This document shows, in pieces, positions 8,880-31,506 of a DNA stretch of 32,000 nucleotides; positions within the stretch are counted from its first letter, which is position 1, and each line of letters opens with the position of its first letter. Position numbers and translations under genes: made by a program. Source of the DNA: Tichowtungia aerotolerans (GTDB lineage: Bacteria; Verrucomicrobiota; Kiritimatiellia; Kiritimatiellales; Tichowtungiaceae); the NCBI RefSeq assembly GCF_009905215.1, contig NZ_CP047593.1, forward strand, positions 1,026,900 through 1,058,899, in the 5' to 3' direction. Under the pieces are notes generated by a model. The model was given only the letters and a program-made list of their open reading frames with translations. It had not been told where the DNA came from and made no database searches.

Positions 8880-8905
8880 CGGACATCCTCAGATGGCTGG
8901 TTAGG
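8880..8905 (-). repeat. attC-like site, truncated (only the inverse core R'' end remains)
   Basis: The minus strand reads GCCTAAC (8905-8899, perfect RYYYAAC) overlapping the TAA stop of ORF 8901-9362. The rest of the palindrome is missing where the IS110 remnant begins. Confidence 0.45.
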
Positions 8906-9362
8906 CTCGATTTATTTTGGTTGTTAAAAATTCACTTATTTTCGTTTTACTAATTTTATCAGGAATCAAAATCGATGTGTGGCGACCATCTTCCGTTGAT
9001 ATCGTCAGTTGATTGAGTGATCGGGTAGAATCTTCGAATTGACCGAATGAGAACTCTTGAATATCTCTGTAGGCGATCTTGACCAATGGGGTTGTGTTGG
9101 TGATGTGAAGGCTCTTTACCCCGAAGAGAACTTCTCTTGCTCCCAAAAATTTCACCTTACTGATTAGGAACAAAACTATGAGCCCGAAAAGGCTACAATA
9201 AAGACCGGCCTGCAAACCTTCAGTGACTGACTTGCCTCCCATTTTCGCCCATAAGGACCACCCAATAATGTTCGCTGGGATGATGAGCATCATTGCAAAC
9301 AGGAACCAATGCTTAGGAAGCTTGCTCTTCGTGATCTCAGGGATTGGTTCAAACCATCTCAT
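8901..9362 (-). CDS. Cassette ORF: hypothetical membrane protein (2 TM plus a soluble C-terminal domain)
   Basis: 153 aa. The ATG lies 13 nt after the GTTAGGC core (9382-9376). Hydrophobic segments HWFLFAMMLIIPANIIGWSLWA and LYCSLFGLIVLFLISKV. The stop lies inside GCCTAAC. Confidence 0.65.
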   Translation of the reverse strand: MRWFEPIPEITKSKLPKHWFLFAMMLIIPANIIGWSLWAKMGGKSVTEGLQAGLYCSLFGLIVLFLISKVKFLGAREVLFGVKSLHITNTTPLVKIAYRDIQEFSFGQFEDSTRSLNQLTISTEDGRHTSILIPDKISKTKISEFLTTKINRA

Positions 9363-9375
9363 ATTATTTTTTCAT

Positions 9376-9424
9376 GCCTAACGATTCGCATCACTCTGAG
9401 CCGGCGGAGCCAGCGATAGAGTGC
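9376..9424 (-). repeat. attC-like site, class A, 3' part (L''-L'-R'); split by IS110-A copy 1
   Basis: Minus strand: CACTCT atcgctggctccgccggctc AGAGTGA tgcgaatc GTTAGGC (perfect GTTRRRY core). The matching R'' (GCGAAC) is on the far side of the IS at 11186-11191. Confidence 0.75.
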
Positions 9425-9558
9425 GTGCGCTTGATACTCATCTAAGCCCTTCAGAAAGGGCTGTGTATTTCTTATTCTAAAATTAGGTGCCCCCTGGTGC
9501 TCAAGCTTCCCGGCACGATCATCAGGAGGCGTCTCACTTAACAAGAAAGGAGACTTGG

Positions 9559-10614
9559 ATGAAGTATTACACAACGACGACGGAATACAACTGCGGAATC
9601 GATCTGCACACACGTCAGATGTACATCTGCGTGATGAATCGTGCAGGCGAGGTGCTGGTGCACCGCAACATCAGGGATAACGATTTCGGCTTCTTTTTAA
9701 AGCTGGTCGAACCATACCGGAAGGATCTAACCGTAACGTGCGAGAGCTGTTTCGTCTGCTTCTGGCTGGCAGACGCCTGCGAGGATGCAGGCATCAAGTT
9801 CGTGCTGGCTCATGCGTATTACGTAAAATCGATTGCGGCCAACAAGCATAAGAACGACAAGGAGGATGCTCGGGAGCTGGCCGAGTGCCTGCGCACGAAC
9901 CGGATCCCTCCTGCGTATGTCTGTCCCCGCGAACTGCGACCTGTTCGCAACCTGCTTCGGCGTCGCACAAAGTATGTGCGTAACCGCGCAGTTCTGACAG
10001 GGCATTCAGCGCGAGAAGTGATGGCGGCAGGGAACCGCCCCCTGAACATTCAGGCGAACTCCAAAGAACGCTGGCGCGAAGGTGTGCGCAGCAGTTTTGA
10101 GGCTCCACTCGACAGTTTTACCGCTGAGGCAGAGCTCTACATGATTGAAAGCTATGACCGGATTATCATGCAGATGGAGCAGCGGATCGAAAAGTATGCG
10201 CGGGATTTTCAGCCGCAAGACTACCGGCTGCTCAGAACCGTTCCAGGCATTGGAAAAATCCTGGCGCTGACCATCCTGTACGAAACAATCGACATCAAAC
10301 GGTTCCCGTCGGACAAGGACTTCGTGAGCTACTGCCGGCTGGTGGCCGGCACCAACGAAAGCGGCGGCAAGGACTTTGGAGGCAAAGGCCGCAAGATGGG
10401 CAACCCGTATCTCAAATGGGCGTTTATGCAGGCGGCAGTTCTCGGTAAACGGGCCGATAAAAAACTCAATGCCTATTATGAAAAGCTGGCCCGACAGAAA
10501 GGCAAACATATTGCCAATGCTGTGCTGGCCACCAAGATCGCCCGCGCTGTGTATTTTATGTTGAAACAGAAAACCGGATTTTCACCGGAGATGATGATGA
10601 GAGGACGACGATGA
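9559..10614 (+). CDS. IS110-family (DEDD) transposase
   Basis: MKYYTTTTEYNCGIDLHTRQMYICV... (N-terminal GIDxH motif). C-terminal ...LRTVPGIGKILALTILYETIDIKRFPSDKDFVSYCRLVAGTNESGGK... The AAGGAG RBS precedes ATG 9559; the ORF track starts earlier at 9487. Confidence 0.9.
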   Translation: MKYYTTTTEYNCGIDLHTRQMYICVMNRAGEVLVHRNIRDNDFGFFLKLVEPYRKDLTVTCESCFVCFWLADACEDAGIKFVLAHAYYVKSIAANKHKNDKEDARELAECLRTNRIPPAYVCPRELRPVRNLLRRRTKYVRNRAVLTGHSAREVMAAGNRPLNIQANSKERWREGVRSSFEAPLDSFTAEAELYMIESYDRIIMQMEQRIEKYARDFQPQDYRLLRTVPGIGKILALTILYETIDIKRFPSDKDFVSYCRLVAGTNESGGKDFGGKGRKMGNPYLKWAFMQAAVLGKRADKKLNAYYEKLARQKGKHIANAVLATKIARAVYFMLKQKTGFSPEMMMRGRR

Positions 10615-11184
10615 TTTTTTGAGGAGACGGCGGGTACCCGAACGCCTAACTGGGACACAAGTGGCCTCCTGCAAACACGACGTAATAAACTGGGGCAACC
10701 CGAATCCGTCGTGATGGGAATCTGGCCTGATCCCTCCGCGCTTGATTGGTCCCGCCATCTCCGGTTTTTAAAACCTGATTTGAATGAGGAGCCGACCCTG
10801 CTGCAGGCCCGACACCAACTGGAATCTGTCTTTATGACGGACAACCGCTTCGCTCTTGAATGGGAAGTATGCAGGGACAGCCGACCAACGGGAGACAGGC
10901 TTTCGCTCGCGAAAGCAGTGACCGAAGGGAACGGCAAACCGAATGATTTTCTGGGACGTCCGGAATGCTTGCGAGCACCGGACAGCCGCCGCCCGCTGCA
11001 AAGCGGGAATCCCGGCCGACTGAGCCCGCACGGTTGTTTGAGCGGTGCCTGTCACCGACTCGCACTTGAAGAGAAAACGGCCTGAGTTTGATTGGGGAGA
11101 AGGACTGATCGATAGCGAAAGTTGCAAAACATAAAAACGATCAGATGGGGGATTTTTGTGCTTTACTCAGAAGGGCTTAATGGT
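10615..11184 (+). ncRNA. Candidate bridge/seek RNA region in the 3' non-coding end of IS110-A
   Basis: An unusually long non-coding region lies downstream of the transposase, as in the IS1111 subgroup where the guide RNA is encoded 3' of the gene. It contains GCGCTTGAT (10738-10746), identical to the IS left end (9427-9435). No structure could be computed by hand. Confidence 0.3.
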
Positions 11185-30479: not shown

Positions 30480-30543
30480 TTCCAACGTCTCGAAGCAGCG
30501 TTTGGGCACGGAGTGGCCAATAAGCTGACTTCGCTTGTTCGCT
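30480..30543 (-). repeat. attC-like site, class B (64 bp)
   Basis: Minus strand: AGCGAAC aagcgaagtcagcttattggccactccgtgcccaaacgctgcttcgagac GTTGGAA. Confidence 0.8.
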
Positions 30544-30545
30544 GT

Positions 30546-31004
30546 TTATCTGGTTTTTAAGTATTCTCTCCGGAGGGCATTCCCCTCTGTTTGGGCAAGA
30601 TCGTATATGTGATTTTTCCAAAAAATTGGGCCAAAGTGGTTTTCCTTGTGCACCTTTATCATTCTGAAGTAGGAAATCAGCCAGCTGGCGAGATGTGTTG
30701 GTGATGCGAGTTTGCCTTGGTCCGATTCATTAATGATCACAAACCCATGACTGGCAAAAAAGTTCGAATCTAGCTGGTCATTAATTACGACCGATTTTAT
30801 CAATCCTCTGTACTGGGTCCAATCACTGCCGAAAAAGTGTGACACCTCTTCCATTGATTTACTAACCATCTCTCGGTATTGCTCGGGCACGTGAAATTCA
30901 GTCCCACGACTGTTCTTTGAGAATGCTCCCCATGCCTTTACACACGAAACCATGAACTTGTTTAGAAGCATAATTGTCGGGAAAAATATGAAATTTCTAA
31001 TCAT
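30546..31004 (-). CDS. Cassette ORF: hypothetical protein
   Basis: 152 aa from ATG 31002-31004 (MIRNFIFFPTIMLLNK...). The ORF-track TTG start at 31028 lies inside the upstream attC. Confidence 0.6.
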   Translation of the reverse strand: MIRNFIFFPTIMLLNKFMVSCVKAWGAFSKNSRGTEFHVPEQYREMVSKSMEEVSHFFGSDWTQYRGLIKSVVINDQLDSNFFASHGFVIINESDQGKLASPTHLASWLISYFRMIKVHKENHFGPIFWKNHIYDLAQTEGNALRREYLKTR

Positions 31005-31016
31005 GTTATTTTTTTC

Positions 31017-31131
31017 AGCGAACGTCAAAAGTGAGCTTCGGAAATGGCCGTGCCGACTTCCGCTCCGTGCGAACTTTTGATTTTAAAAATCATCACCGGG
31101 GTTTTCCGTAAGTTCAACTTTCTGGTTCGCT
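31017..31131 (-). repeat. attC-like site, class C (long, 115 bp)
   Basis: Minus strand: AGCGAAC cagaaagttgaacttacggaaaaccccggtgatgatttttaaaa TCAAAAGT tcgcacggagcggaagtcggcacggccatttccgaagctc ACTTTTGA c GTTCGCT. Confidence 0.6.
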
Positions 31132-31442
31132 TCGATTTGTTTTAAGCTGAACGCTCTTTCTCTTAACATCAAATCACGTATTTTAATCGTTTTTCTCGCA
31201 ATGATCGATGCAGCGACTCCTACTGTCATCATGACCACAATTAACGATTGCCAAAGTCCTGAAATTTCGTACAGGGGAGTCATGATTACCATGACCGAGT
31301 AAAACATCATTTGCCACGTCAGGATTGTCAAAGAATGGGTCGCCTGAACAGCAATGATTAGATCACTTTCTGTTTTCCAACTCATTCGTTTGCTTCTGAG
31401 GAAAGCAATTGTCTTTTTTGCCTTGTTTATATCCATTTTCAT
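31083..31442 (-). CDS. Cassette ORF: hypothetical small membrane protein (2 TM)
   Basis: 119 aa from ATG 31440-31442, which directly follows the GTTCGCT core. The C-terminal ...QKVELTENPGDDF* is encoded by the class C repeat. Confidence 0.65.
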   Translation of the reverse strand: MKMDINKAKKTIAFLRSKRMSWKTESDLIIAVQATHSLTILTWQMMFYSVMVIMTPLYEISGLWQSLIVVMMTVGVAASIIARKTIKIRDLMLRERAFSLKQIEANQKVELTENPGDDF

Positions 31443-31506
31443 AGCGAACGACAAGCATCACTCTGAGCCGGCGGAGTCGGCGATAGAGTGAAGCCGATTG
31501 TTCGCA
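31443..31506 (-). repeat. attC-like site, class A (64 bp)
   Basis: Minus strand: TGCGAAC aatcggctt CACTCT atcgccgactccgccggctc AGAGTGA tgcttgtc GTTCGCT. It starts 1 nt after the TAA of the upstream ORF. Confidence 0.8.

Follow-up and report, generated by a model that had tools for sequence, protein, structure and literature searches.

Clusters of attC sites lacking an integron integrase, the CALINs of the IntegronFinder definition (PMC4889954), are common in genomes that encode an integron integrase (IntI) and have been linked to insertion sequences (IS elements); knowledge of integrons and CALINs outside the Proteobacteria, in the Verrucomicrobia among others, dates back to Cury et al., 2016 (PMC4889954). 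Also established is the IS1111-attC group (ISPa21, ISKpn4, ISPst6 and others), whose members carry an RNA-guided DEDD transposase, target one end of attC, and show the IS1111 arrangement, in which the inverted repeats are sub-terminal and a long non-coding stretch follows the transposase gene, tnp (PMC11187229). The locus described here lies in a 32,000-nt stretch of the Tichowtungia aerotolerans genome (contig NZ_CP047593.1, positions 1,026,900 to 1,058,899), referred to below as the window and numbered from its first letter. From 8899 to the right edge at 32000 and beyond, it appears to be an integron gene-cassette array with about 18 cassettes and 18 attC sites, colonised by IS elements; we put the probability of this reading at roughly 0.93. 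The locus shows every sequence-level feature of such an array for which it was tested; of a complete integron it lacks, within the sequence in view, an adjacent intI.

Each open reading frame (ORF) of the array is followed by an imperfect palindrome of 58-116 nt which, in the minus-strand reading, is bounded by ..AAC and GTT.. ends. A repeat search of the window returned direct-repeat families of 59-134 nt lying between the ORFs, along with two large inverted repeats (1805 and 1449 nt long), both of them copies of IS elements. A first-pass annotation, made from the sequence alone, had proposed an integron cassette array with 18 attC-like sites in four classes, and that count stands: it is composed of 16 matches to the covariance model called R2 below plus two IS-disrupted remnants (S13 and S19). 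The site boundaries quoted there -- GCCCAAC..GTTAGGA at 28808-28745, GCCGAAC..GTTGGGC at 29269-29185, and GCCTAAC/GTTAGGC at 8905-8899 and 9382-9376 -- are exact. The four length classes, of 58-64, 64, 85-86 and 115-116 nt, fall within the range of about 57-141 nt, with variation in the terminal structure, that characterises attC. Thirteen of the sites are intact, while S10, S13, S15, S18 and S19 are interrupted or truncated.

Folded as DNA, the plus strand of these sites forms an R stem and, beyond an internal loop, an L stem that bulges on its 3' arm and ends in a terminal hairpin, with z-scores as low as -4.9 for classes A and B. In the structure common to the latter two, a 3-bp AAC/GTT helix leads through an internal loop to a 9-bp stem, which has a one-base bulge on the 3' arm and is capped by a terminal hairpin. 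Of the 17 pairs of this structure, 10 show compensatory changes between the two classes; the asymmetry in class A takes the form of a 1x2 internal loop rather than a clean bulge. The extrahelical bases of an attC bottom strand lie on the 3' arm. The position of the extra bases here therefore marks the plus strand as the bottom strand. Cassettes are then expected on the minus strand, and it is there that they are observed.

The sites were tested with two covariance models built in this analysis, as stand-ins for that of IntegronFinder. The first, R1, came from an alignment of nine class A and class B sites of the window, taken as plus strand. It gives ten strong matches in the window, at 46-81 bits, and the reverse strands of those sites reach 15 bits only, so that the sites are polar. 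When a single genome of each GTDB species was scanned with a degenerate class A pattern, 39 further loci came up, and in these R1 finds 80 sites, confined to a single strand in 38 of the 39. Across these 80 foreign sites 94.3% of the cells are paired and 13 of the 17 pairs have changed on both sides, giving a covariation score that none of 500 shuffles reached; controls with slid partners pair at 22-42%. The AAC/GTT pairs, which are 98% paired in this set and present in every intact site of the window, are the only invariant part, and the stems covary.

R2, trained solely on those 80 sites from other genomes, finds 16 matches in the window (E 3e-19 to 3e-3) that cover all four classes, 15 on the plus strand and one on the minus strand within an inverted segment; in the left 8.8 kb (1-8800) it finds none. 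The reciprocal test used three class 1 integrons from plasmids (39 kb, both strands), in which an IntI1 query was 100% identical to the annotated IntI1. The four best R2 matches there (E from 7e-6 to 1e-3) are all on the bottom strand and fall on the attC sites that immediately follow aadA2, lnu(F), aac(6')-Ib and aac(6')-IIc; that of aadA2 (28 bits, E 7e-6) is aligned so that the bulge column of the model coincides with the canonical extrahelical G of attC-aadA2. The R and L boxes with bulged bases that had been described from the letters are thus recovered in the folds, in the consensus structure and in this alignment, and the folding of the bottom strand that had been proposed as a check does place the extra bases on the 3' arm. 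The fit to RYYYAAC/GTTRRRY claimed at the same time holds for AAC/GTT, with the full consensus followed loosely only and GCGAAC/GTTCGC common. Rfam at its gathering thresholds has no match to the window, which is uninformative because attC is not an Rfam family.

The units between the sites are co-oriented and contain one ORF each. The ATG follows the site by 0-21 nt, a spacing that leaves no room for a promoter, and the stop of the upstream ORF falls between 9 nt ahead of the site and 50 nt inside it. To the right of 8899 the ORFs are short, interspersed with insertion sequences and, with one exception, on the minus strand, and all units are on that strand once an inversion bounded by IS256-family elements is undone. 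Start codons close behind GTT, stops at or inside the site, and a single inversion had all been claimed beforehand, as had an array richer in A/T than its left flank; each was upheld, the inversion (22749-25867) by the restoration of a 462-aa ORF and the base composition by a G+C content of 43.3% in the cassettes against 53.6% in the left flank, the IS elements standing at 53.8%.

The best view of a cassette as a unit comes from the gene for a protein with TSP3 repeats at the right edge, whose 3' part (31508-32000, minus strand) is 100% identical to a 286-aa T. aerotolerans protein, QHI68748. It is itself a cassette, and so the array very probably continues past 32000; the first-pass annotation had counted it, along with the sulfatase and GH78 genes, among the neighbouring genes, and this is the one point to be corrected. 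The neighbours of the TSP3 cassette differ between L040/L041, L042/L043 and the window (L numbers denote loci in other genomes), and in these comparisons identity starts or ends within a few nt of the R' GTT. The comparison of cassette order among relatives that had been called for therefore yields three neighbourhoods with breaks at GTT, and the cassettes, judged by these alignments, behave as independent mobile units bounded at G|TT. Two more cassettes show duplication. The 131-codon ORF c131 (29242-29637, minus strand; QHI68744) has an identical second copy, QHI68597, outside the window in the same genome, and c113 (29711-30052, minus strand; QHI68745) consists of the first 94 codons of c229 (28045-28734, minus strand; QHI68742), a 299-nt perfect duplicate, joined after ...GGCGGTT to a class D attC. 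The GTT at this junction would fit either recombination by an integrase at a secondary site or a simple deletion.

The host could be named from 14 window proteins that match T. aerotolerans GenBank entries exactly and whose order is positional, from QHI68724 (the leftmost cassette) to QHI68748 (the TSP3 protein); the earlier guess of a marine polysaccharide degrader of the Planctomycetes-Verrucomicrobia-Chlamydiae (PVC) type was correct. The 39 loci with class A sites belong almost entirely to Kiritimatiellales, Pontiella, Tichowtungia or metagenome-assembled genomes (MAGs) labelled "Verrucomicrobia". Class A sites were also found on short contigs assigned to bins of Porticoccaceae, Chromatiales, Rhodobacterales, Planctomycetaceae, Anaerolineales and Cryomorphaceae (L001, L011, L018, L023, L030 and L037), through either mis-binning or cross-phylum cassette traffic.

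In three of the relatives, L020, L017 and L040, the sites begin beside a divergently oriented tyrosine recombinase gene (L020:3374-4759, L017:3173-4528 and L040:567-1925); this adjacent, divergent intI, which marks a complete integron, is absent from the sequence in view in T. aerotolerans. Against the "integron integrase" model TIGR02249, with its cut-off of 265, the L020 and L017 proteins score 418 and 405 bits, and both carry the IntI-specific insertion (...ARKYPxAxKEWxWQYxFP...RRHH...). Class C and class D sites share these IntI-linked arrays with class A, in the same orientation. The IntI proteins of this clade are 450-461 aa long, with about 140 N-terminal residues that have no Pfam match ahead of the TIGR02249 core, and the best 120 IntI homologues in a large protein collection (Gammaproteobacteria MAGs among them) are mostly about 450-490 aa, together with some shorter partial entries. 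One further recombinase was considered and set aside: in L008, from Pontiella sulfatireligans F21, an IS91-family transposase gene and an upstream gene for a XerC/D-like tyrosine recombinase stand at the end of a cassette array (L008:3212-5168), and the latter looks IntI-like by BLAST. It scores 167 bits against the same cut-off, lacks the extra domain and is the partner of the IS91 transposase.

No integrase had been seen in the window by the first-pass annotation, which a tblastn search of the window bears out, and protein look-ups show that the T. aerotolerans genome encodes integron integrases elsewhere. Two are annotated, QHI68334 and QHI69916 (P0104/P0223), each 450 aa long and differing by 2 residues; they are full-length, 82% identical to the L020 IntI, and retain all the conserved columns of the catalytic region. 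By accession order their genes lie about 400 genes to the left (QHI68334) and about 1170 genes to the right (QHI69916) of the window entries QHI68724-68748. To count as a CALIN, a cluster needs at least two attC sites and must be free of intI for 4 kb to the left and right; a sedentary chromosomal integron has homogeneous attC and either exceeds 19 such sites or is found in every genome of its species. Here 18 sites are in view in an array that goes on past the window, and they are homogeneous within classes; to the left follow an IS fragment and then the sulfatase, GH78, MFS and LacI genes, with no intI. Because both annotated intI genes are so far off by accession order, the reading as a CALIN or split sedentary integron is favoured, and it is the most likely one, its basis on the right side being that accession order.

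Several observations weigh against seeing an integron cassette array here. The folds of class C and class D sites are individually no more stable than those of shuffled sequences (z -0.7 to -2.4), and for this reason the assignment of these two classes depends on the covariance model and on context. Several R' boxes read GTTCGCT or GTTCGGT instead of the textbook GTTRRRY. The 32-kb window holds neither an intI nor an attI. The IS load is heavy, amounting to about 50% of 8899-31506 with at least two sites broken, and part of the array may therefore be inert.

Among the alternatives, the one that survives best is that the array is the distal part of a complete integron, with attI and intI (intact and divergent, or pseudogenised) a few cassettes past 32000. 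Cassette polarity does put the intI to the right of the window, and the array goes on in that direction, the edge gene being a cassette; in the metagenomic L040, where the order is intI, a 351-aa ORF, attC, the TSP3 cassette, attC and further cassettes, the TSP3 cassette is the second after intI; and the look-ups would have missed a pseudogene, or an IntI that shares less than about 50% identity with the L020 query. We nevertheless regard this as unlikely, since QHI68334 and QHI69916 (with their alternative-start versions) are the sole integrases found in T. aerotolerans and the series QHI68724-68748 is strictly positional, since the 351-aa first cassette of L040, sought for synteny, has no homologue in T. 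aerotolerans, and since the IS load and the truncated distal end show that this region has been rearranged.

Slightly less probable again is a fossil array that no longer works as an integron and changes now by IS activity and homologous recombination only. The half share of IS DNA, the five interrupted or truncated sites, and the lack of a Pc promoter or intI nearby, none being found in the window, would all suit such a state, but the 13 intact sites score as well as those beside IntI in relatives, two full-length intI genes have been kept in a genome where IntI could act in trans, as it does on CALINs, and the identical c131 copy elsewhere, together with the attC-bounded reshuffling among relatives, indicates recent cassette traffic. 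That the palindromes are repetitive extragenic palindromic (REP) or miniature inverted-repeat transposable element (MITE) repeats, or terminators, unrelated to integrons can be dismissed as highly improbable: they are indeed intergenic imperfect palindromes 3' of ORFs without an Rfam match, but terminators are ruled out by the absence of T-runs and by the conserved AAC/GTT, and REP or MITE repeats by strict polarity, by the fixed position after ORFs and by a single cluster that leaves the adjacent 8.8 kb free, while a model of these sites, in which AAC/GTT is invariant and the stems covary, detects real attC and the same sites adjoin IntI in relatives. CRISPR (clustered regularly interspaced short palindromic repeats) arrays were also considered and are excluded by the absence of spacer-repeat regularity.

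The cassette array as we understand it would have been assembled from units of one mostly promoterless ORF plus an attC, inserted singly by an integron integrase. Its substrate would be attC folded from the bottom strand, here the plus strand of the window, with the crossover at G|TT in the R' box. All four attC classes are lineage-typical variants of a single architecture, in which a partly unpaired spacer joins the AAC/GTT R box to an L stem that has an extra base on the bottom strand's 3' arm, and the terminal hairpin varies. Colonisation came later: two lineages of IS110/IS1111 type at fixed positions in the R'' or R' box, an IS3 element in an attC loop, a pair of IS256 elements that inverted 3.1 kb with the loss of an adjacent stretch, and a truncated IS110 element at the distal end. 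The genome's own IntI presumably built the array and can probably still act on it, and the array would now be physically separate from intI, as a CALIN or as a fragment of a split sedentary chromosomal integron. The second copy of c131 (QHI68597) and another transposase of the IS-C family described below, QHI68675, also outside the window, suggest a further array 50-150 genes to the left, and thus several arrays in one T. aerotolerans genome.

The IS element with the clearest relationship to attC is IS-A (9432-11184, plus strand; tnp 9559-10614, QHI68725), an IS1111-like member of the IS110 family. Its DEDD transposase scores 205 bits in NCBIfam, where the cut-off is 140; the element has sub-terminal inverted repeats, and 570 nt of non-coding sequence follow tnp on its 3' side. 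In the bottom-strand reading, IS-A enters S18 at a point 1 nt ahead of the GTT of the R'' box. The genome has only two copies, the second being the identical, inverted IS-A' (24068-25820, inside the inverted segment; tnp QHI68739), and both lie in a class A attC at the same nucleotide. Relatives more than 90% identical occupy the same position in L033 (class A; from L033:6307) and L048 (class C; L048:2373-4067), so that the element is found at the R'' end of four independent attC sites in three genomes. The target common to S18, S10, L033 and L048 is ..(C/G)T|(G/T)GTTCG, always in one orientation. In L047/L049 the left flank of an IS-A-family element is not attC and the right flank is that of L048, which suggests IS-mediated rearrangement. 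Among the IS110-family genes on 72,556 plasmids, none exceeds 41% identity to the IS-A transposase, and the matches on these plasmids include no class 1 integron elements or contexts.

The second lineage, IS-C (15017-16643, plus strand; IS110 family, tnp QHI68730), stands directly after the GTT of the S15 R' box. A second copy of this family, IS-C' (20005-21306, plus strand; tnp QHI68735), is about 92-98% identical and is truncated at its 3' end by IS-B; the attC that held it has largely been lost. An exact k-mer search of the non-coding regions of IS-A and IS-C for guides of the seekRNA or bridge-RNA kind gave one 9-mer and chance-level 7-mers. The 9-mer, AACGTTATG at 16387 (within 16385-16398) in the 3' non-coding region of IS-C, is complementary to the reconstructed IS-C junction CAT|AACGTT, and CCTGCAT at 16509-16515 in the same region is the same as the left target flank. 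A seekRNA would be expected to have this layout, yet the matches are short enough to have arisen by chance, and we take it as suggestive of a guide and not as evidence for one.

The remaining elements account for the other breaks in the array. A 5'-truncated IS110-family element (8289-8898, plus strand; Pfam Transposase_20, 3e-13) retains only the C-terminal part of its transposase, positions 211-342 of NCBIfam transpos_IS110; it abuts S19 and forms the distal, left end of the array beside the sulfatase gene, with the junction GCCTAACC|AGCCATC. An IS3-family element (17479-18797, plus strand) splits the loop of S13 with a 3-bp target duplication, GGA/TCC. IS-B (21307-22748, plus strand; QHI68736), of the IS256 (Mutator) family, and its identical inverted copy IS-B' (25868-27309, minus strand; QHI68740) enclose the inverted 3.1-kb segment (22749-25867), which holds a target duplication, the body of a beta-helix ORF, S10 and IS-A'. 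The 8-bp duplication, ATCGCGCC, is at 22749-22756 and its complement at 27310-27317, and flipping the segment while dropping one duplication restores the 462-aa ORF without interruption. The other pair of IS256 flanks shares no duplication, from which an adjacent deletion can be deduced that took the 3' end of IS-C' and the R' of S10.

Taken further, these observations would describe a fragmented, multi-locus sedentary integron, with two near-identical intI genes, this array of 18 or more cassettes and at least one more array with a duplicate cassette, whose attC sites are targeted by undescribed RNA-guided IS110/IS1111 lineages at R'' and at R', elements that together with IS256 would break integrons into CALINs. 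We offer this as a tentative proposal with somewhat less than an even chance of being right. If it were true, attC-specific IS parasites would extend beyond the clinical Proteobacteria, and guide RNAs would have evolved against a structured recombination site.

The intact sites, all on the minus strand in cassette reading, are as follows. In class A these are S17 (11916-11979), S7 (28745-28808) and S1 (31443-31506), the last forming part of the TSP3 cassette and supported by the cross-genome comparison; in class B they are S9 (27416-27479), S8 (27987-28050) and S3 (30480-30543), along with the class B-like S16 (12545-12602, 58 nt); all of these are seen in the fold and with R1 and R2. The class C sites S14 (17051-17135, 85 nt), S6 (29185-29269) and S4 (30063-30148) and the class D sites S12 (19588-19703, 116 nt) and S2 (31017-31131) are found by fold and R2, and class D S5 (29646-29760) by R2. 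The five damaged sites include the remnant S19 (8899-8906, minus strand), identified from its sequence and a weak R2 match at 8843-8906, with only the R'' box GCCTAAC left; the other four belong to class A. The R'-L'-loop-L''-spacer part of S18 (9376-9431, minus strand) was recognised from R1 and R2 matches and from its flanks, and IS-A has split it from its R'' box (GCGAAC + 1 nt) at 11185-11192, also on the minus strand. S15 (16644-16703, minus strand; repeats, R1 and R2) ends at the GTT where IS-C starts and is identical to S7 over 59 nt. S13 (17446-18832, minus strand) was recognised from its sequence on the two sides of the IS3-family element. S10 (25821-25867, inside the inverted segment) lacks R', and its R'' is separate at 24061-24067, beyond IS-A'.

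Most of the cassette proteins belong to no family or have matches to domains of unknown function only (DUF2513, DUF3859), and many are small membrane or secreted proteins. All of the cassette ORFs are on the minus strand apart from the inverted part of the beta-helix ORF. From the left they begin with c153 (8901-9362; QHI68724), c242 (11177-11905; QHI68727), the C-terminus of which was changed by the IS-A insertion, and the lipoprotein-like c199 (11931-12530; QHI68728), which runs 49 nt into S17. The largest, c801 (12597-15002; 801 aa), has a weak nuclease N-terminus of PD-(D/E)xK type (HSDR_N-type) and weak P-loop NTPase signals; a PDB sequence search returned no relative of it. On these signals it is a possible candidate for a single-gene defence protein. 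It is followed by the membrane protein c128 (16655-17041), c109 (17108-17437; QHI68732) and a 246-aa protein with a TIR/SEFIR domain (18826-19566; QHI68734; Pfam TIR_2, 2e-23), which matches the PADLOC model for bSEFIR, a single-gene anti-phage system, at 1e-84 and covers positions 35-250 of the 412 in that profile. Beyond the membrane protein c108 (19661-19987) comes the 462-aa beta-helix ORF with a signal peptide, of which the body lies at 22757-24060 on the plus strand, in the inverted segment, and the N-terminal 28 codons with the target duplication at 27310-27394 on the minus strand. The right part of the array holds c163 (27485-27976; DUF3859, QHI68741), c118 (28818-29174; DUF2513, QHI68743), c114 (30131-30475; QHI68746), c152 (30546-31004) and c119 (31083-31442; QHI68747), in addition to c229, c131, c113 and the TSP3 gene described above.

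ORFs that read through a class A attC to the TGA of AGAGTGA gain a common C-terminal tail, ...STHSITxSxGSE. Such tails are found in the window at 11931-11979 and 16655-16703, and at L020:6155-6985 and L017:1074-1631; attC sequence is therefore translated in several unrelated cassettes. Left of the array, ordinary chromosomal genes (1-8288, G+C 53.6%) encode a LacI-type regulator, an MFS_2 sugar transporter, a GH78 alpha-L-rhamnosidase and a sulfatase, and the stretch 1755-8326 (LacI, MFS_2, GH78, sulfatase) has the appearance of a small polysaccharide-utilisation cluster, with no relation to the array.

The Kiritimatiellota, marine polysaccharide degraders of the PVC superphylum, thus keep large integron cassette arrays, and their attC classes could help to assign environmental cassettes to this phylum. 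The locus provides a worked example of how IS elements, attC-targeting IS110/IS1111 types among them, may turn an integron into a CALIN, and its bSEFIR-type gene and nuclease-NTPase candidate agree with the idea that chromosomal integrons are reservoirs of defence genes. These results widen the known range of integrons and leave the understanding of integrons as it was, NCBI already annotating the integron integrases of this genome; what is newest here is the pair of attC-targeting IS110/IS1111 lineages.

Compared with class 1 attC sites, the classical 59-base elements, those of Tichowtungia have the same AAC...GTT R boxes, the same spacing, a bulged L stem on the 3' arm of the bottom strand and a variable loop, but share little primary-sequence identity with them beyond the R box and often have GTTCGCT as R'; and unlike those of class 1 integrons, the Tichowtungia cassettes contain no antibiotic-resistance genes. 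Set beside phage-defence cassettes, the bSEFIR cassette has its strong profile match over about half of the profile, and its defence role is a predicted one. IS-A resembles the IS1111-attC group in its DEDD transposase, sub-terminal repeats, 3' non-coding region, and fixed nucleotide and orientation of insertion, and behaves like that group, with a putative guide RNA; it differs in forming a separate lineage by the plasmid comparison and in its target, the Kiritimatiellota R'' box ..CT|GGTTCG, while IS-C represents a second lineage that uses the R' end. A literature search for integrons of Kiritimatiellota or Tichowtungia found no paper describing them, though absence there is no proof of absence. 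The array is like known sedentary integrons and CALINs in being long and co-oriented, with about 18 cassettes of mostly unassigned function and lineage-typical attC sites; it differs from them in its Kiritimatiellota host, in the four attC length classes combined in one array and in an unusually high IS load. With IntI encoded elsewhere in the genome and IS elements both inside the array and at its edge, it most resembles the CALINs of IntI-encoding genomes (PMC4889954).

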